From a virus, in the IMG/VR virus record IMGVR_UViG_3300001533_002237, positions 1 to 64,000 of that record: DNA of 64,000 nt. The stretch is one strand, 5' to 3'. Below the pieces are notes generated by a model. The model was not told the origin of the DNA and searched no databases. It saw only the letters and a list, made by a program, of their open reading frames with translations. Shown piece by piece: positions 4,141 through 51,938 of this stretch. The position numbers were made by a program, and so were the translations under genes. The number at the start of each line of letters is the position of its first letter. Positions within the stretch are counted from its first letter, which is position 1.

Positions 4141-7100
4141 ATGAATAAACATCAAGTTTTAGGTGAAATTAAAGGATTCCTTGAAGGATATAATGAAGAT
4201 ATTAAATATTTAGTTAATGTCGAAACCGACCCAAGAACAAATTATGCTGAATGTATAATTCATGAACCAAATCATGAACCAAGAATTGAAAAGATAAGAT
4301 ATGAACCTTTTATGTATATGAAGGATTTATCTAGAATTGGTCGAATATTATATGCTAATTATGACGAATCATATATTGAAAGCAAGAAAATTAAATATGG
4401 TATAACAATAACTAAATTAAATACTGGAAATCAACAAAGATTATTAGATGGTTATTATTATAAAATAACTAGTCATAGGTCATATAATGATATAATTAAT
4501 TATATTCGTGATGGCGGTATTGATATTTTCGAAAAATTAACTGATGAACTTGGAAATTTTGTTAGAGATAATAAAGGTAAATTTGTTTATAGAAATCGTG
4601 ATTTATTTCATTCAGTTAAAACAACTGAACAATTTTTTATTTCAACACAATCAAGACTTTATAAAGGGTATGAACAATATAAGGAAGTTCATAGATTAAC
4701 ATATGATATTGAGACAACTGGTTTACGTTATCAAATTGCTAGAATGTTTGCTATTGGTGTTAGAGATAATCGTGGTTTTGAACAAGTTTTAGAAATAGAA
4801 AAAAATGATGATGAATCTGAAATAAGATTAATCCAAGATTTTTTTAATTTAATTGATTTAAAAAAACCTGCTGTTATTGTTGGTCATAACTCTGAAGATT
4901 TTGACTTCGAATTTATTTTAGGGAGAGCTAAAATACTTAAAATGGACTTAACTCAAGTCCCAAATGGATTAAAAGAAGGTGTGCTTTTAAAACGAAAAGG
5001 AAATACGAGTGTTAAGTACGGCAATACAACTGATAAATATACTTCAACTGAAATGTGGGGATATTCATTTATTGATACTCTCCATGCTGCGAAAAGAACT
5101 GCTGCAGTTAATAGCGATTTGAAAAGAACAAACCTAAAATATATTGCAAAATTTGAAAACTTTGCAAGAAAAAATAGAACATATATTAAAGGTGAAGATA
5201 ATGATATTGGTAAATTTTATAATGAAAATAATGTTTTCTTAATTAATGAAAAAAATGAATATATTGAATTACCACCTGAATTTCAAGAAGTTGGAAGAAA
5301 TCTATATAAACTTCAAGTAAATAAGGATAACATAACTGATGAACAATACAAGACATATAAAGCTAAATTTCTTAATGATGATAAGTTAATTAATAATGAA
5401 AAAACATTCGTTGATTGGTTTAAAGAAAATTGTATTGATAAAAAATTAACAACGTTTTTAGGTGGTAAGAAATTAGTACATCAATATCTTCTTGATGACC
5501 TTTGGGAAACAGAACAAGTTGATGAATTATATAATCAATCATCATTTATGCTTGCTAAAATAGTACCAACAGTTTATCAGAGAATTTGTACTATGGGTAC
5601 AGCAAGTATTTGGAATTTATTACTTACTGCATGGAGTTATGAAAATGATTTAGCAATTCCAATTCCAGATAAATTTGAAAAATTTGGTGGTGGATTAGCC
5701 AGAACATATAAAAAAGGATATTCAACTAAGATAATTAAAATTGACTACGCATCTCTTTACCCTATGATTCAGTTAACTCATGGAGTATTTCCGATGTTTG
5801 ATATTACTGGTGTTATGCAGAAAATGTTGTTATATATGACAACTACTCGTAATATCTATAAGAAAATGGGTGCTGGTGCTAAGTTAGATAATGAAGAACT
5901 TGGATTATTAAAACAAGTTGATCATGAAGCACATGATAAATATCTTAATGATAAGTTAATCAAAGAAGATATTGCGATGTTTAAGGTAAAACAATTACCT
6001 ATTAAAATTTTGAATAACTCGTTATATGGTGCATTAGGTTCACACATTAGTTTTAACTGGTCAGATAATATTTGTGCTGCATGGATTACAAGTGTTGCTC
6101 GTTTAGAATTAAGACATGCAATTCATTGGTTTAGTCAATTTGGTTGTATTGCATTATTAGCTGTAACTGATGGTGTTAACTTTAAAATACCCGATTTCAC
6201 ACATATAATAGTAAATGAAAATGGAGTTGATGATTCATCAAAAGATGAAGCACCTATTGATGAAATGTGGATTTATGGTGGTAAAACAGGTATTAATGCT
6301 TTAATTGAATATTTTAATGATACTGAAATGCCAAAACCATATATGAGTGTTGATAATGATGGTGAAAGTATTTCTTGTTTAAATCTTGCTCGTATTAATT
6401 ATGCAATGCTTTCAGAAACTAAAGATAAGAAAACTGGTGAAGTTAAAGAAAAAATTAAATTAACAGGTAATACATTGAAATCGAAAGTAATGCCTGAATA
6501 TATTCAAGAATTTATTGATAAAGGTTTGGATTTAATTCTTCATGGTAAAGGAAAAGAATTTGTTGAATATTATTATAGTTATGCTGAAGATATTCGATAT
6601 ATGCAAATACCTTTAAAGAAAATTGCTAGTAAAAGTAAAGTAAAACAAACACTTAAAGCATATAAAAACAGAGGTACTGACAAGAATGGTAAAGCTAAAG
6701 CAAGTCAGGCACACATGGAATTATTAATTCAAGAAAGAGAGAAAATTGCGTTAGAACTTTTTGAAAAACATAAAATAGAGTTAGGTTTTGATAGTCCAGA
6801 AAAAGAACCGAAGAAAATTGATGATATTATGAAAGTTGTCATTAATTACATGCTACCTGAACCTGAATTAGATAGTACTGTTTATTATGTTAATACTGGT
6901 GAACGTAAATCACATGGTGATGTGAAAAAGGATAAAGATACTGGTGAAATAGAATTACGTTGCAAATTGATTAGTGCTAAAGACCTTGAAGAAAATCCTG
7001 ATATGACTGGTGAATATAATTATGAAAGATATCTTGATGCATTTAATAAAAGAGTTTGTTATAGTGATAAAAAAATAGGTGCTTTGCTTTCGGCATTTGA

Positions 7101-7848
7101 ACCAGAAGTTGCTGAGAAAATTCCTATAGAATTAGTGAAGAAAGGTGAAAATGCTGGTGATTTAATCAAAGGTGATTTTAATCCATTAAAAAATGAATTA
7201 GAACTTAAATCATTCGACCTCGATGATTTTGATGAATCAATGCATTTAAGCGAAAAAGAAGTTGATTTCTGGAATAAGACAGGATATGACCCAAGACTTG
7301 TATGGGATGGTTTTAAAATGCGTGATGATTATAAAGTCCATTATGAAATTTATGAAAACGCATTAAATTTCTTAAATTCAAAATTAGAAGAAAAAGGTGA
7401 TAAACTCAGAATTAAATCAGTAAATGATGATTATCAAAAAGATGATTTAGTTCTAATTAAAAATAATAGTAATTATAGTCTTGGTGTATATAATGGTATT
7501 TATATGAAAATTATCAGAGATAATATCGAAATACCAAAAAGTGAAATAGAAATAGAACTCGATAGAATTAATGAAGAAAATCAGAAAAAAAATGAAGAAT
7601 TAAAATCGAGTGAATTAATTACTAAATCAGATAGAGAAATTTTCTTAGAAGCACAAGCTAAAAAAAGACAAGAATATTTTAAGGAATTTAAACAAGTCTT
7701 TTGTCTTGATTTAACATATACAATGGAAAAATTATTTACTGAAATTCCTGAAGCCAAAGGTGCTTTTGATATGTATATTCAAAATATTGAAAATGAAATT
7801 AATAAAAGTGTAGAAGAATATTTAGGTGTTGATGAAGAAACATATTGA
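4141..7848 (+). CDS. Family B DNA polymerase
   Basis: Exonuclease motifs DIETTG and HNSEDFD; motif A DYASLYP; motif B KILNNSLYG; motif C variant AVTDG. Confidence 0.93.
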   Translation: MNKHQVLGEIKGFLEGYNEDIKYLVNVETDPRTNYAECIIHEPNHEPRIEKIRYEPFMYMKDLSRIGRILYANYDESYIESKKIKYGITITKLNTGNQQRLLDGYYYKITSHRSYNDIINYIRDGGIDIFEKLTDELGNFVRDNKGKFVYRNRDLFHSVKTTEQFFISTQSRLYKGYEQYKEVHRLTYDIETTGLRYQIARMFAIGVRDNRGFEQVLEIEKNDDESEIRLIQDFFNLIDLKKPAVIVGHNSEDFDFEFILGRAKILKMDLTQVPNGLKEGVLLKRKGNTSVKYGNTTDKYTSTEMWGYSFIDTLHAAKRTAAVNSDLKRTNLKYIAKFENFARKNRTYIKGEDNDIGKFYNENNVFLINEKNEYIELPPEFQEVGRNLYKLQVNKDNITDEQYKTYKAKFLNDDKLINNEKTFVDWFKENCIDKKLTTFLGGKKLVHQYLLDDLWETEQVDELYNQSSFMLAKIVPTVYQRICTMGTASIWNLLLTAWSYENDLAIPIPDKFEKFGGGLARTYKKGYSTKIIKIDYASLYPMIQLTHGVFPMFDITGVMQKMLLYMTTTRNIYKKMGAGAKLDNEELGLLKQVDHEAHDKYLNDKLIKEDIAMFKVKQLPIKILNNSLYGALGSHISFNWSDNICAAWITSVARLELRHAIHWFSQFGCIALLAVTDGVNFKIPDFTHIIVNENGVDDSSKDEAPIDEMWIYGGKTGINALIEYFNDTEMPKPYMSVDNDGESISCLNLARINYAMLSETKDKKTGEVKEKIKLTGNTLKSKVMPEYIQEFIDKGLDLILHGKGKEFVEYYYSYAEDIRYMQIPLKKIASKSKVKQTLKAYKNRGTDKNGKAKASQAHMELLIQEREKIALELFEKHKIELGFDSPEKEPKKIDDIMKVVINYMLPEPELDSTVYYVNTGERKSHGDVKKDKDTGEIELRCKLISAKDLEENPDMTGEYNYERYLDAFNKRVCYSDKKIGALLSAFEPEVAEKIPIELVKKGENAGDLIKGDFNPLKNELELKSFDLDDFDESMHLSEKEVDFWNKTGYDPRLVWDGFKMRDDYKVHYEIYENALNFLNSKLEEKGDKLRIKSVNDDYQKDDLVLIKNNSNYSLGVYNGIYMKIIRDNIEIPKSEIEIELDRINEENQKKNEELKSSELITKSDREIFLEAQAKKRQEYFKEFKQVFCLDLTYTMEKLFTEIPEAKGAFDMYIQNIENEINKSVEEYLGVDEETY

Positions 7849-7857
7849 TATTATTAA

Positions 7858-7866
7858 GTATTTATA
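7858..7866 (+). promoter_or_regulatory. Putative late promoter GTATTTATA (first of about 17 copies)
   Basis: Same motif also at 9305, 10588, 11369, 13901, 18364, 21960, 24346, 31619, 36161, 38274, 44615, 50136, 51941, 53356, 57682 and on the minus strand at 62723-62731, each about 10-35 nt before a start codon. Confidence 0.75.
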
Positions 7867-7881
7867 TGAAAATATTCTAAC

Positions 7882-8544
7882 ATGAAATATAAAAAGAAAG
7901 AATTAGCTGAAATAATTGATGGAAATGGTGAATTAATTGGTAAAAATGATATACCTGATGTTGATAAAGATGCTGATACTCAAGCAAAAAACACAAGTGA
8001 TTATAATGCGAAAGTAGGAACACAACCATTTAGATACGATATGTTGGGTCGTTTCGGATTCACATTAATGCCTTTTATGGAAGGTGAAGAAAAAAATCAA
8101 GGTCAAACTGAATTAGTTAATGATGTTTCAGATGAATTATTTGACTTATATCTTGAGATTCTTGAAAATTTTTATAGAAATCCTAATAAAATTAAATCAG
8201 AATTTAGAGTAATAGCTAAAGAAAAAGCTGATGGTTCAGATAAAAATGCTCTTAAAGATAATATTAAATTTAATTTTAATAAATATAGTGAAAAATTAAT
8301 CAAAATTTTTGAAAAACATTTAGATGAGTCATTAAAAAATCTTGATGAACAATTTCAAGAAAATATTGTAGAAGGTAAAGTTCTTGAAGTAATTGTTGAT
8401 AAAAAAGAAGATGAAATGACAACTAAAACTGATGATAAAGAAGTACGTGAAAAGAAAATTGAAAAAATCGCTGGTCTAATTAATAAATTAGAAAAGAAAG
8501 ATATTGATAAGTTAGTAAATTTATTGGAGAAAAAGAATGGCTAA
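7882..8544 (+). CDS. Hypothetical acidic protein, probable head-associated protein
   Basis: 220-aa ORF after a late motif; clustered LDE/IVE/VLE motifs. Confidence 0.6.
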   Translation: MKYKKKELAEIIDGNGELIGKNDIPDVDKDADTQAKNTSDYNAKVGTQPFRYDMLGRFGFTLMPFMEGEEKNQGQTELVNDVSDELFDLYLEILENFYRNPNKIKSEFRVIAKEKADGSDKNALKDNIKFNFNKYSEKLIKIFEKHLDESLKNLDEQFQENIVEGKVLEVIVDKKEDEMTTKTDDKEVREKKIEKIAGLINKLEKKDIDKLVNLLEKKNG

Positions 8545-9301
8545 TCAAGAATTATATAATAAGACGTATAAAATACCAACAGAAGTACTAAAAGACATTC
8601 AAATAGCCTTGGTATCCAATCCTAATGGTGAAGGTGTTAAACGAGCTAAATTCATGCTTAAAAACGGTTATCTAACTTATCAAGCAATGAAAAGAATATT
8701 ACATGATTTTGATAAAATGGATAATACTCAACAAGCTCTTGCTGGTGGTCAACAAATGAAAGCATTTATTGAAACAACATTAAATGCTGATAGAAATGCC
8801 GAAAAAACAGGTAAAAAGGTTAGACGAGATATGAGAAATAATATCCAATCTGATTTAAAATCACATCAGGCAAGACCAGACCTTAACGAGAGTAAAAAAA
8901 AAGATAAAGCAAAAAATGCTGTTGCTGTTATTGTGAATAATGATAATAAAATTTTATTATTAAAACGTTCTGATTACGAAAAACAATGGATGCCGAATAA
9001 ATGGTCATTAGTCGGTGGTGCAATTGAAAAAGGTGAAACACCTCAAAAAGCTGTTGAAAGAGAAATAATGGAAGAAACTGGATTAGAAATAAAAAAATTC
9101 AGTAAATCATTTACAATTGAAACACATCAAGATAGTATTGAACATGTATTCGCCTGTAGATATGATGGTGAACCAACAGATATTAAACTTAATGATGAAA
9201 ATAGTAATTATGGTTGGTATGATATTAGTGAAATGGAATATCTTGATATTGTTCCACATTTAATTGAATTTATTACATTAGTATTTAAAAAATATAATTA
9301 A
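8537..9301 (+). CDS. Nudix hydrolase with N-terminal extension
   Basis: Nudix box GGAIEKGETPQKAVEREIMEETGL. Confidence 0.9.
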   Translation: MANQELYNKTYKIPTEVLKDIQIALVSNPNGEGVKRAKFMLKNGYLTYQAMKRILHDFDKMDNTQQALAGGQQMKAFIETTLNADRNAEKTGKKVRRDMRNNIQSDLKSHQARPDLNESKKKDKAKNAVAVIVNNDNKILLLKRSDYEKQWMPNKWSLVGGAIEKGETPQKAVEREIMEETGLEIKKFSKSFTIETHQDSIEHVFACRYDGEPTDIKLNDENSNYGWYDISEMEYLDIVPHLIEFITLVFKKYN

Positions 9302-9345
9302 ATTGTATTTATAATAAATAACAGAAAAGATTAAAAACTAAAAAA

Positions 9346-9627
9346 ATGGCAGATGGTGAAAACACTAGTAGATTATTAACAAGTAGTGAAGAAATAAGAG
9401 AAGCAATGCTTGCAAAAAATGGTAAATTATATACTGAAGGTAAAGAATATAAAACAGGTCACCCAAATTCAATTTCAGATGGTGATGAAAAAGGAAGAGA
9501 CCCCGAAGATGAAGGTGGTTCAATAGGAACATCAGTTGATATTGAGAATAGAGAAGCAATGCTTGCAAAAAATGGTAATTTATATACTTGCGGTAATGAA
9601 TATACTGCTGGTAGTGATAATGTATAA
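9346..9627 (+). CDS. Small hypothetical protein with an internal repeat
   Basis: REAMLAKNG(K/N)LYT occurs twice; late motif at 9305. Confidence 0.7.
   Translation: MADGENTSRLLTSSEEIREAMLAKNGKLYTEGKEYKTGHPNSISDGDEKGRDPEDEGGSIGTSVDIENREAMLAKNGNLYTCGNEYTAGSDNV
9397..9588 (+). repeat. 39-nt direct repeat (9397-9435 and 9550-9588)
   Basis: agagaagcaatgcttgcaaaaaatggtaaWttatatact, one mismatch. Confidence 0.85.
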
Positions 9628-10583
9628 TGAAAAACGAAGAAAAAATATTATTTGAGAATATCAAAAATTTTCGTCAATTACTTACTGAAGGAATTGGTCA
9701 GAATGATATTATAGATGCTATTCAAAATCATGAATGGGTTTATCTTTATTATAATGCTGATAACGAAGAAGGTAAAAATGCAACTGGTTATCGAACTGTA
9801 AGACCATATGTTCTTGGTACTAATGCTAAAGGAAATACTGTATTAAGAGCATGGCAAGACAATCCAAAAAATAGTTGGCATTTTGATAATAAATCAACTA
9901 GACATGATAGTCAACAACATGATTTTTGGAGTGACCAAGAGGGTGTTAAACCCGGTTGGAGAATGTTCGATTTATCAAAAATAACAAAAATGTACCCAAC
10001 AGGTAAAAAATTTAATGATTCAAATGGTTTACCAATGATACCTGCTGGTTATCATGAAGGCGGTGATGATGACATGACAAGTATTATTGCTTATGTATCA
10101 ACAAAAAATGAACCTCAATTTGATTATAAATATGATAAAGAAAAACAAATTGATATGATTCCTAAAAAAGACAGAAATAAAGAAAAATGGGATAGTATTA
10201 GAAGAGGGAATAAAAATTCTAGAGAAATAACTGCTAATGATATAATTAAATTACGTGATATTGCAAGTCGTGTTCATAAAAAAGCACATGGAAATTATTT
10301 AGTTGTTATTGATGATAAAAATAATTTTCAGTTAATTCAAAGTAAAGATAAAGAAAAACAAAATATACCTGATATTGCAGTTGTTGGTTCATTACCATAT
10401 TTATATGATAATATTGTTAAGAAAAATGCTCCTCCTGATGATAAATTTTTTAACGATATAAAAAATAAAACACAAAGTGATTTAAGATTAAAAGCACAAG
10501 ACACTGTAAATGAACCAGAATCAGATATTAATGAAAAGAAAAGTCCTACAATTCCATACAAAAAAATGACTTTTTTCAAATAA
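9627..10583 (+). CDS. WYL-domain protein
   Basis: IIDAIQNHEWVYLYY...RTVRPYVLG...VLRAWQ...GWRMFDLSKI follows the WYL pattern. Confidence 0.7.
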   Translation: MKNEEKILFENIKNFRQLLTEGIGQNDIIDAIQNHEWVYLYYNADNEEGKNATGYRTVRPYVLGTNAKGNTVLRAWQDNPKNSWHFDNKSTRHDSQQHDFWSDQEGVKPGWRMFDLSKITKMYPTGKKFNDSNGLPMIPAGYHEGGDDDMTSIIAYVSTKNEPQFDYKYDKEKQIDMIPKKDRNKEKWDSIRRGNKNSREITANDIIKLRDIASRVHKKAHGNYLVVIDDKNNFQLIQSKDKEKQNIPDIAVVGSLPYLYDNIVKKNAPPDDKFFNDIKNKTQSDLRLKAQDTVNEPESDINEKKSPTIPYKKMTFFK

Positions 10584-10619
10584 TGTAGTATTTATAAAAA
10601 AATATAAAAATTTATAATA

Positions 10620-11342
10620 ATGACGAATAATAAACTAGACTTAAATAAAATAAGAGACGAAATTGATAAGGAAAAGAAAAGTCGAAATATGACTCCATCA
10701 CAATTGGGTGAAAACGTTGGAAGTGGTGTTGCACCACGTGATGAATTTTTAAATGGCTTAATAACAACACTTAATTCGGGGAAAGAAACTCCTTCAAGTA
10801 ATTTAATTAAAGTTGTTGAAAATAAAGTAGCTGCGAAAAATAATAAAACAGCTAGATATAAGGTTAATGAAACACAATCGCCAACAACTATACCTTCAAA
10901 ACCATCACAAGTTGACATGTCACCTGAAAGAGAAGAACAACTATATGCTGATATGGAAGCTAAACGTAAACAAACACTTGCTGAAAGTATTGCAAGTTAT
11001 ACTGGAAGTCAAAAAGGTAATCAATCTGGGTCTGTTGATTTTAATGGAATAAAATATTTAACTACACCACCAAAAGCACCAGAACCAAATCAATCAGTAT
11101 CTCAACCAATGCAAATTAATGAAGCTGCATTAACCGAAAACGTAAAAAATGTTGTTAATGGTTATTTAAGTGAAAATCTTGGTTCTGTTTTTGAAGAAGC
11201 AATTAAAGGTACTATTATTGAAATGTATGCTGTTGAACGAATAAAAGAAGTTTTAAATGAGAATCGAGATTTAATAAAATCTGTTGTTGTCGAAACCATT
11301 CGAGAGATACAAGCAAAAAATAAGAAAAAAGTGCAATCCTAG
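10620..11342 (+). CDS. Hypothetical protein, probable head/scaffold-associated
   Basis: 240-aa ORF; late motif at 10588; many VNE/INE/LTE/LSE/LNE motifs. Confidence 0.6.
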   Translation: MTNNKLDLNKIRDEIDKEKKSRNMTPSQLGENVGSGVAPRDEFLNGLITTLNSGKETPSSNLIKVVENKVAAKNNKTARYKVNETQSPTTIPSKPSQVDMSPEREEQLYADMEAKRKQTLAESIASYTGSQKGNQSGSVDFNGIKYLTTPPKAPEPNQSVSQPMQINEAALTENVKNVVNGYLSENLGSVFEEAIKGTIIEMYAVERIKEVLNENRDLIKSVVVETIREIQAKNKKKVQS

Positions 11343-11356
11343 TTGCACTTTTTTTT
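11325..11356 (+). terminator. Rho-independent terminator
   Basis: aaaaaagtgcaa-tcctag-ttgcactttttt stem-loop with T tail. Confidence 0.8.
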
Positions 11357-11396
11357 GTTATTCCTTTCGTATTTATGAATATAAAATATTCGTAAT

Positions 11397-13619
11397 ATGA
11401 CGTATGATGAATTCAAACAAAATTTCTTACCAGAATTTCTAAAAATTAATTCTTATGCTGGTAGAATAAGATATGCCAACCAAAATCTTGAAAGAATTGG
11501 TGGTGGTACTGGTAGAATTGTATATAATATCGATGATGAAAAGGTTTTAAAATTAGCCAAAAACGCCAGAGGTGTTGCTCAAAATGAAGCTGAAGAAAAC
11601 TCATCTGATTATTATTCAAATTCAATTGTTGCTGAAGTATTTGATTATGATGAAAATTATATATGGTTGATTTCAGAACAAGCAAAAAAAGTAACTGAAA
11701 AAAGAATTAAAGAAGTTACAGGAATCCCAAGTCTTCACGATTTATTTATTTTTTTATCAAATACTAAAGATAAAAATAATGGAAAAGAAGAGTCATTGAA
11801 CCAATCCAAAGAAATGGAAGAATTTTTTTGGGAAAATGAATTTGTTGTTGATTTATTTAATTTTATCGCTGGTTATAACCAATCTGTTGGTGATATGGGT
11901 AAACCAAGTAGTTATGGTGAAGTTGTTCGTAATGGTGAACATTTAATTGTTTTGACTGATTATGGATTAAATGATGAAGTATATAATAAGTATTATAACC
12001 CAAAAAGAAAACAAAAATATCAGATGTATGAACTTTATAATTTTGCTGATGGTAATGACGATATACTTAATGATACTGGTGACCAAACTGTTATTAGACG
12101 TGGTATGTGGGCACAAATGCCTTATAGTGTAAGTGATGGTCAAGGTGTTATAAATGAAAAATTTGTTAATTTTGTTAAAAACAGAAATAAATATCCAAAT
12201 GAATCTGTTTCAGGTATTGGTTTACTTGCTGATGGTTTTCATGAATGTGTTAATAATATAAAAGAAACACTTAAAACTGTTGATGATAAAGAAAAGTTTT
12301 ATAATAACTTATTGGAACTTCAAAATTATTTAAGTAATCAAGGATATTATGATAGAGATAAATTATTAAGTGAAGAATATTTTATTAATGAAGAAACACC
12401 TGATGTTGAACAATATTCTTTAGATGATAGAACCTATGCCGATGAATTAGCAAGAGCAGTTGCAATTAAATTAAATTTATCTTCACCAAGATATCTTGGT
12501 GGTGGTGGAAATGGATTTGCATATGAAATTAATAATAATTTAGTATTGAAATTAACATCAGATGTTAGTGAAGCAGATGCTGCATCAAAACTATTAAGAG
12601 GAAAACCAGAATATATTGCAACTATTTTTAATCTATATAAAGTTCATGATACTGAAACAGATAAATCATTTTTTGCAATACTACAAGAAAATATTAATGA
12701 TAAACCAATTGAAAAATTTAAGAAAATACAAAACGATATTGACAAAATTAGTCCGAATGGTATGGGTTATGTCGATATTATGTTTTCAATAAAAAAACCA
12801 AAAAGATTTGATTATGAACAAATGCTTGAATTTGCAAAACAATTATTAACAACTAATCCAGAAGCAAATGTTTCACAACAAGAAAGACAAGAAGCATATG
12901 AATTTTTAGTTGGAATGATTAATATACGTAAGGAATTACTTGATTTTGACATTAAATCTGTTGATTATATTGAAAATGCTAATTTAGGATATAAAGACGG
13001 TGTATTAAAATTTTTTGATACTGGTGGTTATCGTGGCGTTCAAGAACCAAATCTTAATAATGACAAATTAATTACATTACCTGAAGATGCTACAGCTAAA
13101 TTTACTACTGATGACGCAATAAATCAAGATGGTTTTCCATCATATAACACTAATGATACTTCTCCGAGTATTAATAATGATTTAGATGCTAATATTGCAA
13201 TGTATAATGAAGATTTAGAATATAATCATGTTAAAGGCGATGCTAGTAATGATGAATATGTTCTGGGTGAATCTGATATTAATTTAAGTAAAAAAGAATA
13301 TCAAAACATTACTGATGACAAAATATTGGAATATATTAAATCAATTAACAATCTTATTAACCAAATTAAAAGTAAAAAATATTTAAGTCGTGAAGATTTA
13401 ACTGATTTAAAATTTCTAACATTTTCAATGAATTATAATAAAAATAAATATTTAGAACACATGGGGTTTAATTATTTTAATGATGTATTTAAATTATTTA
13501 TTAAAATTTTGAAAAAAAATAATATTATTAAAGACGATGATTCAAATAAGAAATTAACTGAAAATATTCCAATGTATGAAGATTTAATCTATAACTATAT
13601 TAAAGAAATGATGAGTTAA
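11397..13619 (+). CDS. Protein with two protein-kinase-like domains
   Basis: IGGGTGRIVY..VLKLA..NEAE..TDYG and LGGGGNGFAY..VLKLT..SEA..DYIENAN..FFDTG. Confidence 0.75.
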   Translation: MTYDEFKQNFLPEFLKINSYAGRIRYANQNLERIGGGTGRIVYNIDDEKVLKLAKNARGVAQNEAEENSSDYYSNSIVAEVFDYDENYIWLISEQAKKVTEKRIKEVTGIPSLHDLFIFLSNTKDKNNGKEESLNQSKEMEEFFWENEFVVDLFNFIAGYNQSVGDMGKPSSYGEVVRNGEHLIVLTDYGLNDEVYNKYYNPKRKQKYQMYELYNFADGNDDILNDTGDQTVIRRGMWAQMPYSVSDGQGVINEKFVNFVKNRNKYPNESVSGIGLLADGFHECVNNIKETLKTVDDKEKFYNNLLELQNYLSNQGYYDRDKLLSEEYFINEETPDVEQYSLDDRTYADELARAVAIKLNLSSPRYLGGGGNGFAYEINNNLVLKLTSDVSEADAASKLLRGKPEYIATIFNLYKVHDTETDKSFFAILQENINDKPIEKFKKIQNDIDKISPNGMGYVDIMFSIKKPKRFDYEQMLEFAKQLLTTNPEANVSQQERQEAYEFLVGMINIRKELLDFDIKSVDYIENANLGYKDGVLKFFDTGGYRGVQEPNLNNDKLITLPEDATAKFTTDDAINQDGFPSYNTNDTSPSINNDLDANIAMYNEDLEYNHVKGDASNDEYVLGESDINLSKKEYQNITDDKILEYIKSINNLINQIKSKKYLSREDLTDLKFLTFSMNYNKNKYLEHMGFNYFNDVFKLFIKILKKNNIIKDDDSNKKLTENIPMYEDLIYNYIKEMMS

Positions 13620-13621
13620 TT

Positions 13622-13876
13622 ATGGACGAAGAAAGAAATAAATCATTTGGAAGTGGTTCAAAAACTGTTGAAGTAAAAAAGAAATGTCGTCTTGGTGGTA
13701 AAGGAAATACTAGTGTCGCATGTAATCAAGGTGATATTAATAACTTGATTTTGAAATCAATTAAAGAAGAAATCGAAAATAATTTGGAACTTCAAGAATA
13801 TTTTAGTAGTCTTGTACCTAATATTGATGAAGGAGAAATTATGAAAAATATTAGTGAAGCAAGAAATTTAATGTAA
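13622..13876 (+). CDS. Hypothetical peptide, probably the frameshifted continuation of the kinase protein
   Basis: One extra A at about 13607 joins it in frame to 11397-13619 (KE-NDELIMDEERNK). Confidence 0.55.
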   Translation: MDEERNKSFGSGSKTVEVKKKCRLGGKGNTSVACNQGDINNLILKSIKEEIENNLELQEYFSSLVPNIDEGEIMKNISEARNLM

Positions 13877-13922
13877 ACGATGCTTTTCGTAGACATATTA
13901 GTATTTATTATTAAATATTAAT

Positions 13923-14737
13923 ATGGGAAGACCAAGGAAATATAGTTTAAATGAAAATTATTTTGAAAAAATTGATTCGGATGATAAAGCATATATATTA
14001 GGGTTTATATATGCTGATGGTAGTGTTTATAAAAATTATTTGAGTATCTGGTTAGCAATAAAAGATGTTGAAATACTTGATTTTATTAAAGAAAAATTAG
14101 ATTATGGGGGCATAATTTATAATTCTTATAATAAGAAAAAAAATAAAAAATATGTTGGTTTAACAATTTCATCAAATAAAATTGTTTCTGATTTAAATAA
14201 ATTTGGTATTATTAATAATAAAACATATCAGTCAAAAACATTACCAATATATAATAAAAAATATGAAAAAGCATTTTTAAGAGGATTTTTTGATGGTGAT
14301 GGGTCAATATATTCAAATAATAGTAGGAAATATATAGAATATACCGTCAATTTTTCGGGAAATAAAAGCGTTTTAACACAATTAAAGAAAATATTATATA
14401 AATATAGTATTACAAGCAGTAAAATTAGATATAGACATAATAATGAAGAATCGTGTATGTTAGATATTAGAGGTAATAAAAATATTGAAAAATTAATAAT
14501 TTATTTTATAATGATGGTACATTTTCTTTAAAAAGAAAAAAAAATAGATTTGATGAGTTTATCAAAATGTTAAATATGTTAACGAAACGAAATTTATCTG
14601 ATGAAATTATTAACAAAATTAAATTATTATACCTTTCAGGTATTAAACAAACAGATATAGCAGATAAAATAAACATACCAAAGAGTTCTGTGCGAACAGT
14701 GGTACAAAGACTTAGAAAATATGGGGAAGTTAAATAA
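13923..14737 (+). mobile_element. Free-standing LAGLIDADG homing endonuclease with C-terminal HTH, frameshifted near 14497
   Basis: AYILGFIYADG and AFLRGFFDGDG; the shifted frame continues FYNDGTFSLKRKK...LYLSGIKQTDIADKINIPKSSVRTVV to TAA 14735-14737. Confidence 0.85.
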
Positions 14738-16592
14738 AATTACACAATATTATCGAGAAAAAAATTTTATTAAAGAATTAATTAATAGTGGTTTTGAAGT
14801 TTATCTTGTGGGTGGAATTGTAAGAGACCTCATATTAAATAATCAAAATAAAGATGTTGATTTGGTTGTTAGAAAAGCATCTATAGATTCTTTAATTCAA
14901 AAATTACGAAAATTTGGTGATGTAAATTTAGTTGGGAAATCATTTGGTGTATTAAAATTTGTTGACAACGATGGAATTGATTATGATATCGCATTACCTC
15001 GAAAGGATATACCTACTGGTGAAGGAGGTCATAGGGGATTTGAAATTCAAAGTGATGAAAATTTATCGATTGAAGATGAATTAATCAGAAGAGATGCTAA
15101 AATGAATGCAATGGCATTAAATTTAAACACAGGTAAATTTATTGACCCTTTAGGTGGTCTTGATGATATTGAAAACAAACAAATTTCAGCAGCTAATCCA
15201 GAAGCATTTAGTGATGATGCACTCAGAATGCTTAGAGCAATACAATTTGCAAGTTGTTTTGGTTTTACAATTGAACCTAAAACAATGCAAATGATTATTG
15301 ATAATGCAGATAAGATTACAGAAATTGCACCTGAAAGAATATTAATTGAATTAGATAAAATAGTAAATAAAGGTAATCCACGTATTGGTATTCAATTATT
15401 AGTAAATACTGGTTTATTTAAACAGATTTTTGGTAATGAAATTAAACAATCACAAATTGATGATAGAGATTTCAATAATGTAAAAACAATGGGTGAATTT
15501 CTATTTTTAATGATGAATGATGTTGTACAGAATCCACCTGAATTTTATTTAAGTCGATTTAGTACTACTGATGCTAAAAGAGATAAAATTTATAAAGAAT
15601 TACGAGCATTAGACCTAGCATTTAATTCTGATTTAGCTAATGAACAAACAGATAGTGTAAAAGCAAGGTCATTAGCAAGTAATATGTATAATATTGCTCC
15701 ACAAACACTTGAAAATCAAATATTACCTGAAACAATCAGAAATGCTGGACAGGAATTATTACAGGGTAAATACCCTAAAACAGTAAATGAATTAGCAGTT
15801 AATGGTAATGATTTAATGCAACAAGGACTTAGCGGAAAAGCTGTTGGTGATATGCAAAAATCGATGTTAATTTGGATTTATGCTGACAAAATTAGGAATA
15901 ATAAGGAAGAATTACTATCTTTGGTTAATAAAACAAATGATATGGAAGAAGGTTATGGTAATTATAGTAAACCTCCTGATACTTGGGATATTAATGGTGA
16001 ACAAGTTACTATAGATTTCTTTGTTAAGGAATATGATAAATGGAATAATCAGCATGGAAAACCAGTATATGAAAATGCATCAAAGGCAAGTGTTTTAGAA
16101 TTCCTTCAAAATAATTATGAAGATGAATCAGCAGATGAAAATTTGAAAAGACAACTATATTGGGAATTAACTGATAGAGATTTATTAAAAGAAGATAATG
16201 ATGTAAAAAAAATATCATATAGTGCAGTAGTTCTTGATGATAAATCAAGAAAACAATTAATTAAAGTATTTAGTCAAATGATTCCTGAAGATTGGGAGAT
16301 TATTGCTGACCATATGACAATAAAAATGGGTGGTCTTGAAGATGGAAGTCAAGAAAAACAAGACATGGAAGATGGAAAAGAAATTCATTTAAATGTGGTA
16401 GATTATGTTATGGATGATAAAGTAATGGCTATTGGTGTTAAAGGATATCCATTAACAAATGTTAAACCACATATAATTATTGTAGTTAATCGTACTGAAG
16501 GTGGTAAACCGTTTATGTCAAATAAATTAACTGATTGGAGAAAAATAGGATTTTCATTTGAATTAACTGGAAAAATTGAAGAAGTGTCATAA
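14721..16592 (+). CDS. cca: Class II tRNA nucleotidyltransferase (CCA-adding type) fused to a C-terminal 2H phosphoesterase (Trl1 CPDase-like)
   Basis: VGGIVRD..KDVD, RRD, DDALRMLR, ERILIEL; no HD domain; C-terminal YSAVVL..HMT..PHII..SNKL. Confidence 0.85.
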   Translation: MGKLNKITQYYREKNFIKELINSGFEVYLVGGIVRDLILNNQNKDVDLVVRKASIDSLIQKLRKFGDVNLVGKSFGVLKFVDNDGIDYDIALPRKDIPTGEGGHRGFEIQSDENLSIEDELIRRDAKMNAMALNLNTGKFIDPLGGLDDIENKQISAANPEAFSDDALRMLRAIQFASCFGFTIEPKTMQMIIDNADKITEIAPERILIELDKIVNKGNPRIGIQLLVNTGLFKQIFGNEIKQSQIDDRDFNNVKTMGEFLFLMMNDVVQNPPEFYLSRFSTTDAKRDKIYKELRALDLAFNSDLANEQTDSVKARSLASNMYNIAPQTLENQILPETIRNAGQELLQGKYPKTVNELAVNGNDLMQQGLSGKAVGDMQKSMLIWIYADKIRNNKEELLSLVNKTNDMEEGYGNYSKPPDTWDINGEQVTIDFFVKEYDKWNNQHGKPVYENASKASVLEFLQNNYEDESADENLKRQLYWELTDRDLLKEDNDVKKISYSAVVLDDKSRKQLIKVFSQMIPEDWEIIADHMTIKMGGLEDGSQEKQDMEDGKEIHLNVVDYVMDDKVMAIGVKGYPLTNVKPHIIIVVNRTEGGKPFMSNKLTDWRKIGFSFELTGKIEEVS

Positions 16593-17240
16593 ATGAGAAA
16601 AGAACAACTTTTAAAAGAAGTACAACGTAATAAATTGCTTGAAAATTCAGGCGTGAATTCAGTTAGTGGTGTTGACTTAATATCAATAGATATTCAACCA
16701 ACATATGAACAAGCATTTGATTTTAATTTAAATAGTTTTATTGAATTTATAAATAATAATTATGATTCAATGAATTCGTTAACATTTCTGTTTAACGGTC
16801 TTGATTTAGGATTTCCCGATGAAAATGAATATAAATATTGGTTATTTGAGAATGGATTGGAAGAAAATATAATAGAATTAGCGAATTTTTATGATAAAGG
16901 ATATGCATTTTTTCGTTTTTGTATGGATGAAGGTATTGATGATGATAAAATTGTTGATTTAATTAAATATATGGTTCGTCATAATATAAATAATAGTAGA
17001 GAAATTGATGAAAATATGTGGAATGAATTCATGAACGAGTATGGTCATTCTGATGTTCGTGAATTATTAGAGCTTGCTGATGATATGATAAATATTCCTG
17101 ATTTAATGGAATATTTACAAAGATTTCGTGGAAGAATTGTATTATGTGGTGGTGGAATTAATGAATGTTTAAAAGAAGTTGAAATTGCATTAATGGCACT
17201 TGATAAAGATTACAATATATTAACAAAATATACGTATTAA
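16593..17240 (+). CDS. Cysteine hydrolase (isochorismatase/nicotinamidase-fold) protein
   Basis: Putative Asp-Lys-Cys triad: ISIDIQP, YDKGY, VLCGGGINEC. Confidence 0.6.
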   Translation: MRKEQLLKEVQRNKLLENSGVNSVSGVDLISIDIQPTYEQAFDFNLNSFIEFINNNYDSMNSLTFLFNGLDLGFPDENEYKYWLFENGLEENIIELANFYDKGYAFFRFCMDEGIDDDKIVDLIKYMVRHNINNSREIDENMWNEFMNEYGHSDVRELLELADDMINIPDLMEYLQRFRGRIVLCGGGINECLKEVEIALMALDKDYNILTKYTY

Positions 17241-17263
17241 AAATAATATAAAATTTAATTATT

Positions 17264-17770
17264 ATGAATAATCATATTAATGAATTACAGAAAAAAATGT
17301 ATGAAGATGGTTTGAAGGTTGAAGATTATTTCATTGAATTAGCAGAACGTGACGGTTATAAATGTCTTAAATCAAACAATTTTCAAGATAAATATGAACA
17401 TTGGGATATCAAAATAATAAAGGATAAAAAATCTGCACGTGTTGATGTTAAAGGATATAAAGAAAGTCATAAAACTGGATTTACTTGGGTTGAATTTCAA
17501 AATATTAATGGTGATAAAGGATGGATTAATGGGAAAGCACATGTAATTGCATTTGAAAGAGAAGACCGTTTCGATTTAATTGATAGAGTTAAATTAAAAA
17601 AATTTATTAAAAGTAAAATCGTTAATCCAACAGGTTATGTATATATTAAACCTGATGATTTATTAGAAATTGCTTATCATAGATATCGAAGAATGGGTCG
17701 TAGGGACATTATTATTTTAGTACCTTTTGATGATATTGAACAATTTATAATGACAACAATATATAAATAA
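17264..17770 (+). CDS. PD-(D/E)XK-fold nuclease-like protein
   Basis: E...WD...VDVK...VEFQN...GW pattern. Confidence 0.55.
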   Translation: MNNHINELQKKMYEDGLKVEDYFIELAERDGYKCLKSNNFQDKYEHWDIKIIKDKKSARVDVKGYKESHKTGFTWVEFQNINGDKGWINGKAHVIAFEREDRFDLIDRVKLKKFIKSKIVNPTGYVYIKPDDLLEIAYHRYRRMGRRDIIILVPFDDIEQFIMTTIYK

Positions 17771-17776
17771 TATGAA

Positions 17777-18361
17777 ATGAAAAGATTAACTGTATTTGAT
17801 TTTGATGCTACCTTAATAAACACATTTTCTCCTGAAGAAGGTAAACCTATGTGGGAAAAATTTTATGGAAAACCTTATCCTCATAAAGGATGGTGGGGTC
17901 GTAAAGAAAGTTTAGATACTAATGTGTTTGACATCAAACCATTTCCAAATATATTATCTATTCTTAGAAAAGACATGGCTGACCCCGATACAACGACAAT
18001 AATATTAACTTCTCGTTTGGAAAAATTACGTCCAGAACTTGAAAATATTTTAAAGTTAAATAATATTAATGTTGATGAATTAATCACAAAAAAAGGTCGA
18101 GAAGATAAAGGTGATATTATATTAAAAATTTAAAAATATAATGATGATTTAGAAGAAATTGTTGTTTATGATGATTTCGCTGATAAACAACCAAATAAAA
18201 TTGTTGAATATACTAAAATTAAAGATTTATTACCTGATAATATTCAATATAATATTTTTTATGTTAAAAATGATAAAATTAGTTTATTAGAAAGAGTTTC
18301 ATTTGACTCAACAAATAAATTATTGGAGATAATTCAAGAAGAAATCATAAATTTTAAATAA
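17777..18361 (+). pseudogene. HAD phosphatase (Swiss-Army-Knife RNA-repair type) with an in-frame TAA at 18131-18133
   Basis: FDFDATL, WW, LTSR, K; the same frame continues past the stop with motif IV (IVVYDD) to TAA 18359-18361. Confidence 0.75.
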
Positions 18362-18385
18362 GAGTATTTATAATAAATTTTAATA

Positions 18386-19126
18386 ATGCCAAAAAAACTA
18401 ACAAAAGAAGAATTTATTGTAAAAGCCAAGAAAGTTCATGGTAATAAATTTAATTATGATTTAGTTGAATATCTTAATAATAAAACTAAAGTAAAAATTG
18501 TTTGTCCATTACACGGTGAATTTTTACAAAAACCGAATGACCATTTAAGTGGATATGGTTGTAGGAAATGTCAATATGAAAAAACATCTAAAATAAATAA
18601 ATTTACTACTGAAGATTTTATTAATAACGCAATTAAAATACATGGTAATAGATATATTTATTCAATTGTTGAATATAATGGGTATGAAAATAAAGTGAAT
18701 ATTATTTGTAATAAACATGGTAAGTTTAAACAATCATCACACTCTCATTTAAGTGGTGCTGGTTGTCCGTCATGTAAAGAATCTCGTGGTGAGAAACGAA
18801 TTACAGAATTTTTATTAAAAAATAATATTAATTATCAAAAACAAGTATCATTTGATGGATTAATTGGTGATAAATCTTCATTATTTTTTGATTTTTACCT
18901 TCCAGAGTATGAAATGATGATTGAGTTCGATGGAATACAACATACTAAACCAATTAAATTTTTTGGTGGAATGAAAAAACTATTAAAACAAAAAGAATAT
19001 GATAGAAAAAAAATTGATTTTGTTGTTAGAAATGGATATAAATTATTAAAACTAACATATAATATGTTTTCATATCTTGAAGAAGCATTAGAGTGTGAAT
19101 TAAAAAATAATAAAATATTATGTTAA
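18386..19126 (+). mobile_element. Homing-endonuclease-like protein (zinc-binding repeats + PD-(D/E)XK/Vsr-like domain)
   Basis: Two FI..A..VHG..Y...C..HG.F.Q...HLSG.GC..C repeats, then SRGE...FDFYL...IEFDGIQH. Confidence 0.8.
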
Positions 19127-19947
19127 AAAATGGAAGACCATATCATTTACCTCAATTAAATATGGATTACTCTATTGTATTAGAGAAACTAGGTAATGAA
19201 AATATTAATTATAATATAATTGAATTATCACCAAGTGAAAATGATGAAATCAAACCATCACAAGTAATAGTGTATTCAGATGAGATTTCTGGGGTTATTC
19301 TTGATGATAATAAACCTATTTGGATTAGTTCTGATAATCATATTTGTGATGGTCATCATCGATATTTTAAATCAATGTTTGATAAAATATCAATTAAATG
19401 TGTTAAAATTAATTTGAATCATAAAGATGCTTGTAGAATATTAAATAAAATACAAGATATTTATGATTATGAACAATCACAAGGTTTAGAAGAAGTTCAG
19501 GTTCAAGATACAATTAATTTTTATGGTGATGATGAAAATCAATTTCTAAATTCATTAGAAGAAGATAATATTGCAATTCAATCGGAAAGCGAAACACCAA
19601 TAAAAAATCAAAAAACTTTAATTGGTTATAGACAATCGCCAATTAAAGAAAATTCAGTTATTGGTAATTTTTTTACATTAAAACCAGTTGAAGGTTATGA
19701 TAAATATGAAATTGAATTTAATAACTTAATGGATACTAATAGTCTGGGTGTTACATATAAAGATGGTCAAGACCCAATTGATATTTTAGCAAAAAGTTGG
19801 TTTCCAAATATTAATTTTGAAAAATTAAGTACTAAACATAATACAACACCAATTAATTTAAAAACTAAAGCAGTTGCTGAAAAAGCAATGAAGATGGGGT
19901 ATGATGGAATTAAATATGGTGATACAATAATTCAAGGATTAAAATAA
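19120..19947 (+). CDS. ParB/Srx-like N-terminal domain protein
   Basis: KPSQ...PIWISSDNHICDGHHR; the C-terminal domain ends GYDGIKY. Confidence 0.6.
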   Translation: MLKNGRPYHLPQLNMDYSIVLEKLGNENINYNIIELSPSENDEIKPSQVIVYSDEISGVILDDNKPIWISSDNHICDGHHRYFKSMFDKISIKCVKINLNHKDACRILNKIQDIYDYEQSQGLEEVQVQDTINFYGDDENQFLNSLEEDNIAIQSESETPIKNQKTLIGYRQSPIKENSVIGNFFTLKPVEGYDKYEIEFNNLMDTNSLGVTYKDGQDPIDILAKSWFPNINFEKLSTKHNTTPINLKTKAVAEKAMKMGYDGIKYGDTIIQGLK

Positions 19948-24337: not shown

Positions 24338-24368
24338 GTTTATAAGTATTTATAGGAAATAAATTATA

Positions 24369-44632: not shown

Positions 44633-45373
44633 ATGAAAAAAATATCTATTACGTTATCAAATAAATTATATAATAAAATTAATGAAATTAGACATGATTT
44701 ATCTAAAATAGAAAATTATAATATTAGTTTTGATGAAATTATTGAAGAAAGTATAATGAATCATTTCAATATAAAATTAATTGATATAAATGATGATGTT
44801 GAAATTATTGATAATAAATTAGTTAATGCAATCAATCAATCAAATAATCATAACAATTATTATATCTATGTTTATTTTAATGAAAGAAAAAAATGTAATA
44901 TTAAAGTAGGTGATTATATTTTTACTTCTGAACCAATATATATTGGAAAAGGGTTAAATAATAGGATGTTTGAATTAAGTAATCGAGATAATAATCTAAT
45001 TGATTTTATTGATGAATTAAAAAGTACAAATGAATTTTCATCAGTTAAATTAATTAATGATTTAACTAAAGAAAATGCATTTTATTATGAACAAATGTTT
45101 ATTAGTTCAATTGGTAGATTAAATAATGGTACAGGAACATTATATAATAAAAATGGTGGAAATTTAAATATTTTAAAAAAAGAAATTGATTCAAACAATT
45201 ATGAATTAAATATTGAGTATAATTTAGGAAAAATGATATTAGATTCTTTAAATAAAACAAAAAATATGTCAAAAACAGCAAAAGAACTGAATATTAATCT
45301 TAGAACACTTTATAGAAAATTAGATAAATATTCAATAAAAAAATATGGTGATAATTGGGTTATTTTAAAATAG
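44633..45373 (+). CDS. Fusion of RHH-like, GIY-YIG and Fis-type HTH domains
   Basis: MKKISITLSNKLY; YYIYVY...IYIGKG...R...E..FI..IGR...G.L.N; NMSKTAKELNINLRTLYRKLDKY; ATG 44633 follows the late motif at 44615. Confidence 0.7.
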   Translation: MKKISITLSNKLYNKINEIRHDLSKIENYNISFDEIIEESIMNHFNIKLIDINDDVEIIDNKLVNAINQSNNHNNYYIYVYFNERKKCNIKVGDYIFTSEPIYIGKGLNNRMFELSNRDNNLIDFIDELKSTNEFSSVKLINDLTKENAFYYEQMFISSIGRLNNGTGTLYNKNGGNLNILKKEIDSNNYELNIEYNLGKMILDSLNKTKNMSKTAKELNINLRTLYRKLDKYSIKKYGDNWVILK

Positions 45374-51329: not shown

Positions 51330-51938
51330 ATGCACATAGACAAGGAAACATATAAAATATCAACTTATAATCATTATAAGACTAAAACAGTTAAAACTCA
51401 AATTGTAATTGGTTCTAGTTTGAGAAAAGATAATAATCATATTAAAAGACTACAACATAAAGAATTTGGTAAAACAAAAAAATGGAATACATTTACAATT
51501 AATCGAGAAGGAAATATTTATCAACATTATGATGATAAATATCATAGTGATTTTCTTGGTGTTAAAGAAGGCGATAAGCGCAGTATATCAATTGTATTAG
51601 AAAACATGGGTTGTTTATTTGAAACAACATCTGGAGAGTTTATAAATTGGTTAAATGAGTTTTGTATTAAAGATCGAGTTGTTGAAAAAGAATGGTTAGA
51701 TTATGATTTTTGGGAAAAATATTCTGATGAACAATTAGATAGTCTTATTAATTTAATTAATTTTTTGTGTGAAAAACATAATATACCTAAAACATTTATT
51801 GAATTTTACACATATCATAAAAATACTCATAAATTTAAAGGAATTGTATTTAGAGGGAATTATATTGAAGACAGTAGTGATATGAATCCTTTGTTAAATA
51901 TTGACCAATTAACTGAGATGTTATCTAATGATAATTAA
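51330..51938 (+). CDS. N-acetylmuramoyl-L-alanine amidase-like protein with degenerate zinc ligands
   Basis: KTQIVIGSS (no HHT), F.INREG.IYQ, SISIVLEN, YSDEQLDSL..L. Confidence 0.65.
   Translation: MHIDKETYKISTYNHYKTKTVKTQIVIGSSLRKDNNHIKRLQHKEFGKTKKWNTFTINREGNIYQHYDDKYHSDFLGVKEGDKRSISIVLENMGCLFETTSGEFINWLNEFCIKDRVVEKEWLDYDFWEKYSDEQLDSLINLINFLCEKHNIPKTFIEFYTYHKNTHKFKGIVFRGNYIEDSSDMNPLLNIDQLTEMLSNDN

Follow-up and report, generated by a model that had tools for sequence, protein, structure and literature searches.

The sequence analysed here is a viral DNA stretch of 64,000 nucleotides (the window), which is the first 64 kb of the 94,308-bp record IMGVR_UViG_3300001533_002237. Positions 7,882 to 19,947 of the window carry a cluster of genes, all on the plus strand and located directly 3' of the DNA polymerase B (polB) gene (4141-7848). 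As read from its sequence, this segment is a conserved block of auxiliary enzymes under a late promoter, split by two homing endonucleases. An initial annotation had proposed that these enzymes are expressed late, carry aliphatic-x-Glu sites ([ILV]xE) at the edges of their domains, and are packaged in the capsid, released by the prohead protease and delivered with the DNA.

The record has an estimated completeness of ~31% (CheckV) and a G+C content of ~25%. A close relative was not found among cultured phages; megablast against a phage collection gave no match, and the best match of polB in the phage collection was 25% identical. A profile of the twin-kinase protein of the cluster retrieved 51 related viral contigs, 7 of them of ~300-349 kb. 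Five complete relatives (G001 to G005, 325-349 kb) were compared whole, of which G001 was syntenic with the fragment across ~88 kb, with proteins that were 40-80% identical. The record is best read as a fragment of a T4-like jumbo phage. Its host probably belongs to the Bacteroidota, since the replication genes carry a TAnnTTTG "-7" box and one homolog is labelled Bacteroidales. The features of the segment are as follows.

7858-7866, plus strand: late-type promoter box GTATTTATA, ahead of the first cluster gene; the same box stands ahead of G001 virion genes
7882-8544, plus strand: u220, charged helical protein with the N-terminus MKYKKKELAE, which includes LAE (7903-7911)
8537-9301, plus strand: N-domain, linker and Nudix hydrolase (Pfam NUDIX, 4.5e-21)
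9346-9627, plus strand: u93, small protein with an internal repeat, conserved in relatives; no Pfam or PHROG match
9627-10583, plus strand: u318, WYL-family protein with LTE at 9681-9689
10620-11342, plus strand: u240, no named family, 13 aliphatic-x-Glu sites; no Pfam or PHROG match
11397-13619, plus strand: twin protein-kinase-like protein of 740 residues, with GxGxxG...K motifs twice
13622-13876, plus strand: u84, small KKKCRLGG...ACNQGDI domain, a separate open reading frame (ORF) in the window and fused to the kinase in relatives (G001)
13923-14531, plus strand: LAGLIDADG homing endonuclease behind a late box (Pfam 8.1e-16, PHROG 3.3e-45)
14721-16592, plus strand: fusion of a CCA-adding tRNA nucleotidyltransferase and a 2H phosphoesterase, with LKE (16185-16193) at the joint
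16593-17240, plus strand: u215, atlas score of 0.85 to a cluster with isochorismatase in 17% of its members
17264-17770, plus strand: u168, poorly conserved in relatives; no family match
17777-18352, plus strand: HAD_SAK_1-type phosphatase gene with one in-frame TAA at 18134-18136
18386-19126, plus strand: HNH homing endonuclease behind a late box (PHROG 559, 3.8e-61)
19120-19947, plus strand: u275, DGHHR motif (read from the sequence), orthologs 48-75% identical

The enzyme families named in the initial annotation fared unequally. The Nudix domain was confirmed by Pfam, in a protein composed of an N-terminal domain (residues 6-93), a disordered linker (94-121) containing LNE (8882-8890) and the Nudix domain (122-250); for the fold of the N-terminal domain, Foldseek with the AlphaFold2 model returned Nudix matches only. 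The WYL domain was recognized in 19 of 25 orthologs of u318 (Pfam WYL, PF13280; best 5.5e-6) but not in the window copy, and a language-model atlas also led from u318 to WYL. A cysteine hydrolase had been placed behind LLE at 16635. The protein concerned, u215, had no match in Pfam (including PF00857), PHROG, NCBIfam or PDB, which left the atlas lead of 0.85 as the only pointer to such an enzyme. In the HAD gene the TAA follows codon 118 and HAD motif IV lies behind the stop, so that no open reading frame holds all of motifs I-IV. The assignment to HAD holds through the intact G001 ortholog, which has 188 aa and scores 32.1 bits, above the cut-off; the TAA in the window reflects either a pseudogene, an assembly error or readthrough. 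The LLE and IQE sites that had been described as a tail after the HAD domain are present but are located behind this stop codon, within the HAD gene. For u220, searches of Pfam, PHROG and NCBIfam gave no match; the protein occurs in one copy per genome and retains LAE8 in 36 of 36 orthologs.

The LAGLIDADG gene is missing from the same place in the relative L003 and is a mobile insert rather than cargo; the HNH endonuclease is likewise a mobile insert. A 56-codon ORF with helix-turn-helix-like character (14567-14737), between the LAGLIDADG and CCA genes, may be a remnant or the C-terminal part of the endonuclease. Rfam and tRNA scans for RNA features were empty and thus gave no sign of homing endonucleases sitting in introns.

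Two kinases had also been claimed, and the 740-residue protein does have a twin protein-kinase-like fold. Its kinase motifs (Gly-rich loop, catalytic Lys, DxxxxN and DxG) were invariant across 21 homologs, and Foldseek with the kinase model returned kinases or aminoglycoside phosphotransferases only, at modest E values of 4e-4 to 5e-3. At the sequence level there was no match in Pfam or PDB, and PDB searches with the kinase, u215, u318 and u240 yielded nothing useful. The joints of the kinase protein carry INE (12384-12392), LPE (13077-13085) and LGE (13263-13271). The CCA part was identified as a class II CCA-adding enzyme by PF01743 (PolyA_pol, 1.8e-21) and PF12627 (2.3e-17), with an NCBIfam match to PRK13299 (2e-49, 168.7 bits) below the equivalog cut-off of 290. 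The 2H domain of the initial annotation was supported by a match to PF08302 (tRNA_lig_CPD; 6e-4, 19.8 bits) that is below the cut-off of 23, by the separate G001 ortholog at 24.2 bits and by homologs that carry PF13563 or PF02834. Since 2H is a separate ORF in relatives (G001 90366-90749; L003:15301-16355), the CCA-2H fusion is one of several arrangements. In L003 the CCA and 2H genes are separated by a GIY-YIG homing endonuclease.

At least two disparate domains per polypeptide were found in the window in the CCA-2H, twin-kinase and N-domain-Nudix proteins. In relatives, the same modules together with ART and GNAT are strung into polyproteins of 1,000-1,350 residues (up to 1,348). Because its homologs are fused to CCA enzyme, 2H, GNAT and ART-PolyVal domains, the kinase family was placed among the polyvalent proteins, and the cluster proteins appear to belong to this type. 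One kinase polyprotein of G001 (95666-99157; L072:15666-19157) has 1,163 residues and ends in a region with an HExxH motif (near residues 1090-1100) that has no Pfam match; this end of the protein may be a divergent zincin peptidase module.

Two classes of promoter were distinguished. The box GTATTTAT occurred in 22 copies in the window against 12.1 expected, a number reached by 0 of 100 shuffles. Seventeen copies were intergenic, 10-33 nt upstream of a start codon, and six of these serve the 12-kb cluster (7858, 9305, 10588, 11369, 13901 and 18364); a late box at 24346 stands ahead of a gp25-like baseplate gene. The consensus of the late-type box, [G/C]TATTTAT(A), was found upstream of cluster and virion genes alike. 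In G001 the box lay at most 60 nt upstream of 78 of 465 ORFs, including those for portal, terminase, gp15-like and gp25-like proteins, and 65-70 nt upstream of the sheath and tube genes, while the protease gene had the C variant. The term late is applied to GTATTTAT by inference from these gene classes. Instead of the late box, the genes for SNF2, SbcC, SbcD, primase, exonuclease and RNA ligase had a TAnnTTTG box (upstream of window positions 126, 39939, 42399, 45422 and 60352 and contig position 80181), often with TTG 17-23 nt upstream of this -7 box, which points to a host-polymerase early class of replication and repair genes. The counts of boxes and the G001 virion genes thus bear out the proposal that the enzymes share a promoter motif with baseplate genes and not with replication genes. 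Even if the packaging idea were wrong, the boxes sort the promoters of a Bacteroidota jumbo phage cleanly into two classes.

Every [ILV]xE tripeptide listed in the initial annotation was present where it had been placed. Such sites are common. One occurs about every 45 residues, a random 20-residue stretch holds one with a probability of 0.34, and polB alone has 27. The density was 0.024 in the region, 0.0206 in a set of nine replication and repair proteins and 0.020 elsewhere on the contig, and the excess was not significant (Fisher p = 0.097). The narrower motif [IL][ANT]E gave an odds ratio (OR) of 1.4 in the window (p = 0.21). Taken in the single window sequence, the listed sites are not above chance and are no evidence. 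Among individual proteins, u240 had 13 aliphatic-x-Glu sites against 5.0 in composition shuffles, and 0 of 500 shuffles reached 13. An apparent excess of sites near the N-terminus (6 of 14 proteins of the region and 9 of 84 others have the Glu within residues 6-14; p = 0.007) was rejected as a signal because it was post hoc, included a homing endonuclease and extended to polB, which has such a site.

The clusters of the five complete relatives were enriched in these sites. For [IL][NT]E, the cluster-versus-rest OR was 2.19, 1.95, 1.55, 1.84 and 2.29, and the cluster was the richest window genome-wide in three genomes; in a fourth, the head module and a run of leader genes ranked richest (see below). 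Pooled, [IL][ANT]E was 2.2 times as frequent in the cluster as in the rest of the genomes and 3.0 times in a positive set of predicted head-core proteins (the head-core set). The enrichment was specific for Glu at P1, as the corresponding ratios for cluster and head-core set were 1.1 and 1.66 with Asp, 0.8 and 0.85 with Gln, 1.3 and 1.18 with Lys, and 1.0 and 0.93 with Asn. It was also specific for an aliphatic P3, with ratios of 0.48 and 0.91 for aromatic residues, 0.74 and 0.89 for basic residues, and 0.60 and 0.94 for Ser/Thr. A preference for N, T, A and D at P2 was common to the head-core set and the cluster. By family, [IL][ANT]E was enriched 5.75-fold in u240 (p = 4e-10, pooled p-values being too small because the five genomes share ancestry), 2.36-fold in the kinase and 1.87-fold in the CCA protein. 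In polB, primase, SbcD, gp6 and Dda the ratio was 0.36-0.99, and a glycosyltransferase-like protein was also without signal. Composition accounts for a ratio of only ~1.0-1.2. Pure chance, the first reading of the pattern, was dropped after these comparative tests.

Two other families of the window showed a similar excess of [IL][ANT]E in six genomes and are candidates for further protease substrates: that of 54247-57246 (plus strand, with DUF3008; 2.8-fold, p = 1e-8) and that of 62754-63494 (minus strand; 5.6-fold, p = 1e-8).

The position of the sites was examined in alignments of 34-38 orthologs per family. Five sites were kept despite variable flanks: LNE116 of the Nudix protein (95%), LTE19 (100%), INE330 (72%), LPE561 (78%) and LKE489 (74%). 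The flanks of conserved sites were just 12-33% identical; for LNE116 the flanks were 28% identical across 37 orthologs. In 25 orthologs E118 of the Nudix protein was invariant and L116 was present in at least 90%, while the surrounding linker residues vary and carry indels, and the predicted local distance difference test (pLDDT) score of the linker (94-121) was below 50 in the AlphaFold2 model. The E21 that ends LTE19 of u318 was likewise invariant. INE 12384, LPE 13077 and LGE 13263 of the kinase protein fell in or beside low-pLDDT linkers of the model. In u240, VNE 10863 opens a variable Pro/Gln linker and INE 11115 was nearly invariant; in u84, IKE 13760 and IDE 13823 correspond to joints in relatives. 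The proposed placement at domain edges therefore stood for LNE 8882, LTE 9681, INE 12384 and LKE 16185, which are conserved at linkers or borders, but not for LSE324, kept in 39% only, nor for several other sites, which were not conserved.

Conserved [ILVM]xE sites stood directly before a variable stretch in 7 of 39 cases, compared with 36 of 1,064 other conserved positions (OR 6.2, p = 5e-4). Control proteins had no conserved site in this position, and the comparison of cluster and control edges alone gave 7/43 vs 0/20. Among relatives, where both the kinase and the CCA proteins are large polyproteins of many modules, nearly every joint carried [ILM]xE; in the kinase family these joints include the two at which an optional third kinase module begins and ends. 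An ART-like cassette was found in three polyprotein contexts, each time with L-x-E before it and [ILM]-N-E at its end.

The initial annotation had called for a gp21-like protease and a capsid cleavage site elsewhere in the genome. No capsid, portal or protease gene was found in the 94-kb fragment, but each of the five complete relatives, including the syntenic G001, encodes a protease of the T4 gp21 type (Peptidase_S77) and a major capsid protein of the gp23 type (E ~1e-64). Where the T4 maturation site falls (..FLTE|AEIGG in the T4 record), the capsid protein reads M-I-N-E, and this is its likely maturation site. In G001, an N-terminal leader, K.RLFE.M...L[NT]E, was common to five unrelated proteins in or near the head region (carriers include L075:5932-8777, L078:3377-4102 and L079:13628-14705), and a profile of the leader matched 3-11 ORFs in each of G002-G005, 27 in all. 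This leader is a candidate capsid targeting sequence of the clade. Because the leader ends in L[NT]E and the capsid protein has M-I-N-E, the lineage very probably uses aliphatic-x-Glu cleavage as T4 does.

One leader carrier, of 150 aa, has an HExxH motif. Of the five prohead proteases, four contain an intein (L078:14152-16080 in G001), whereas that of G004 is uninterrupted and has 243 residues; the SNF2-type helicase of the window (126-2954) contains an intein too (Pfam Intein_splicing, 6e-9). Two resemblances to targeting sequences were discarded. The kinase N-terminus, MTYDEF.., recalls the T4 targeting sequence (MKTYQEF..), but it is shared by no other protein of the fragment (G000) or G001 and was judged a coincidence; it is a confident helix in the model. 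The N-terminus of u318 was considered as a copy of the leader, but the leader profile misses u318 and the G001 ortholog lacks the Glu. The XacN1 homolog (ORF170) is not mentioned in the published XacN1 virion proteome.

We favour the hypothesis that the joints of the cluster proteins are cleavage sites of the gp21-type prohead protease of the lineage. At least some cluster proteins would enter the prohead, the protease would cut them into single enzymes, and the released enzymes would leave the capsid with the DNA. Cleavage, the identity of the protease, packaging and injection are what we infer from the pattern of sites, and we assign packaging and prohead-protease release of the cluster enzymes a probability of roughly 0.42. 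In its wider form the hypothesis is that the ~330-kb T4-like jumbo phage clade shuffles enzyme cassettes on aliphatic-x-Glu linkers and that these are loaded into the prohead, cut by the gp21-type protease and injected; the proposed kit would comprise kinase-like, ART, GNAT, CCA-adding, 2H, Nudix and WYL cassettes. This wider form is tentative, and we would put it somewhat short of even odds.

Several observations weigh against packaging and prohead release. The leader profile found no cluster protein in six genomes and no protein in the fragment, and no ORF with the leader lies within 10 kb of the cluster, which adjoins the DNA polymerase gene and not the head genes. Profiles of the Nudix N-domain, u220, u240 and the u318 N-terminus found their own orthologs only, which gave no shared targeting domain, and Pfam detected no MuF, portal or zincin peptidase domain in the listed homologs or the G001 polyproteins. 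The lack of a short leader is not decisive either way, because in SPN3US ~80% of head proteins are uncut and N-terminal propeptides measure 20-254 residues (PMC10052503). The late box is also found ahead of three homing endonuclease genes. A strong alternative is that the proteins are ordinary cytoplasmic late enzymes, never packaged or cut, whose motifs are module ends running into acidic Lys/Glu/Asn-rich linkers. CCA, 2H and HAD enzymes would then repair tRNA 3' ends, Nudix and 2H enzymes would remove nucleotide signals, and the kinases would modify host or phage targets. Jumbo phages typically use CCA, 2H, HAD and Nudix enzymes in the cytoplasm for repair and signal removal (PMC7824862), and the contig also has an RNA ligase gene and a Thg1-like gene outside the cluster. 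Part of the joint pattern could arise without a protease where a hydrophobic residue runs into an acidic linker; the CCA module ends at ..DRDLL.E in orthologs, some ORFs stopping exactly there, and this motif can therefore be the natural end of the fold rather than a linker site. Enrichment was also missing from the window itself. Several findings speak against a purely cytoplasmic role: the enrichment, with its specificity for a P1 Glu and an aliphatic P3, mirrors the head-core set, L-N-E is invariant within a disordered, indel-rich linker, the motif flanks the ART cassette in three contexts, and composition yields a ratio of only ~1.0-1.2. We regard this alternative as a serious possibility, although we would sooner bet against it than for it.

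The joints might instead be cut in the cytoplasm by another protease, for example a zincin-like module or a host Glu-specific peptidase, in which case the polyproteins would serve co-expression and would not be encapsidated. HExxH occurs in the C-terminal part of the G001 kinase polyprotein and in one leader protein, and Iyer et al. predict zincin-like processing of polyvalent proteins. Pfam, however, finds no peptidase domain in the polyproteins, the window proteins lack the HExxH part, and the P3/P1 pattern is of the gp21 type and is shown by the leader proteins as well, which makes such a protease rather unlikely. Chance combined with shared ancestry, the enrichment having arisen from post hoc choice of the sub-motif, has to be considered because sub-motifs and windows were chosen after inspection of the data and the five genomes are related; moreover, the edge test, when run across the genomes on five sequences per family, revealed no effect, but had no power, and the contrast between cluster and control edges comprises seven sites in all. 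Against this, conserved sites stand in strongly diverged flanks, the ART cassettes are independent insertions, the contrasts with D, Q, K and N were drawn from this very data set, and polB and other controls behave differently. We consider this explanation very unlikely.

Packaging and prohead release of the cluster enzymes would overlap two known themes, head processing in T4 and giant phages and the polyvalent proteins. The T4 protease gp21 recognizes L/I-X-E and cleaves behind it, and a P1 Asp prevents processing (PMC9026906). The cluster resembles the system of T4 internal proteins and Alt in that relatives have the S77 protease and the gp23-type capsid protein, the promoter is of late type, and the motif is aliphatic-x-Glu, with a Glu that is not replaceable by Asp in the cluster statistics; as with Alt, the cargo would be enzymes. 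It differs from T4 in that the cluster proteins have no shared short capsid targeting sequence, the leader being carried by other proteins of the lineage, and in that the sites lie between modules and not just near the N-terminus. The enzymes are kinases, CCA, 2H, Nudix and HAD here rather than an ADP-ribosyltransferase, although ART modules occur in relatives, and the cluster is known here from sequence alone. In phiKZ, 201phi2-1 and SPN3US, similarly, diverged gp21 homologs cut many head proteins after x-x-Glu, and propeptides of 111-254 residues compare with the 118-residue N-terminal part of the Nudix protein. In contrast, the proteases of these phages prefer Ala, Ser or Gly at P3, the gene content of these phages is unrelated, and their substrates were found by mass spectrometry.

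For polyvalent proteins, injection together with the phage DNA and processing by zincin-like peptidases have been predicted, and a reduced protein-kinase domain, including stand-alone forms, was described in Bacteroidetes (pro)phages (Iyer et al. 2017, PMC5512222). The cluster shares with them disparate modules in one polypeptide, the reduced kinase type, fusions with ART-PolyVal, GNAT and 2H, and genes beside late genes. Unlike in the polyvalent proteins, most modules of the window are encoded by ORFs of their own, a search for MuF, portal and zincin (MPTase) domains gave none, and the proposed cutter is the prohead protease; a CCA-adding enzyme is not among the nucleotidyltransferases in Iyer et al. 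(PMC5512222). The cluster also recalls phage tRNA repair sets (T4 Pnkp and RNA ligases; CCA/Thg1 of jumbo phages, PMC7824862), with CCA, 2H and an RNA-repair "Swiss Army Knife" HAD here and the RNA ligase and Thg1-like gene on the same contig. It differs from these in that the ligase and Thg1 genes are behind host-type promoters whereas the cluster is behind the late box, and in that its kinases have the protein-kinase fold and not the P-loop fold of polynucleotide kinases.

For polyvalent proteins, entry into the capsid and cutting are largely untested, and the published proposal is self-processing by zincin peptidases. If prohead-protease release were true, one protease would serve both to mature the head and to release polyvalent effectors, packaged effectors could be recognized by a simple sequence rule in a large clade of uncultured phages, the free swapping of enzyme cassettes between polyproteins would be explained, and tRNA-end repair and kinase activities would join the known kinds of injected phage proteins. 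If it were wrong, the segment would still be a well-conserved block of late enzymes.

The late box was also found ahead of genes outside the cluster. A 246-aa protein behind a late box (44633-45373), encoded between the primase and SbcC genes, has a C-terminal Fis-type HTH_8 domain (1.3e-9) and may regulate transcription. The window also has two distinct genes for cell-wall amidases, at 51330-51938 and 57707-58450 (Amidase_2, 4e-9; PHROG amidase, 4.6e-11), the second of them behind a late box.

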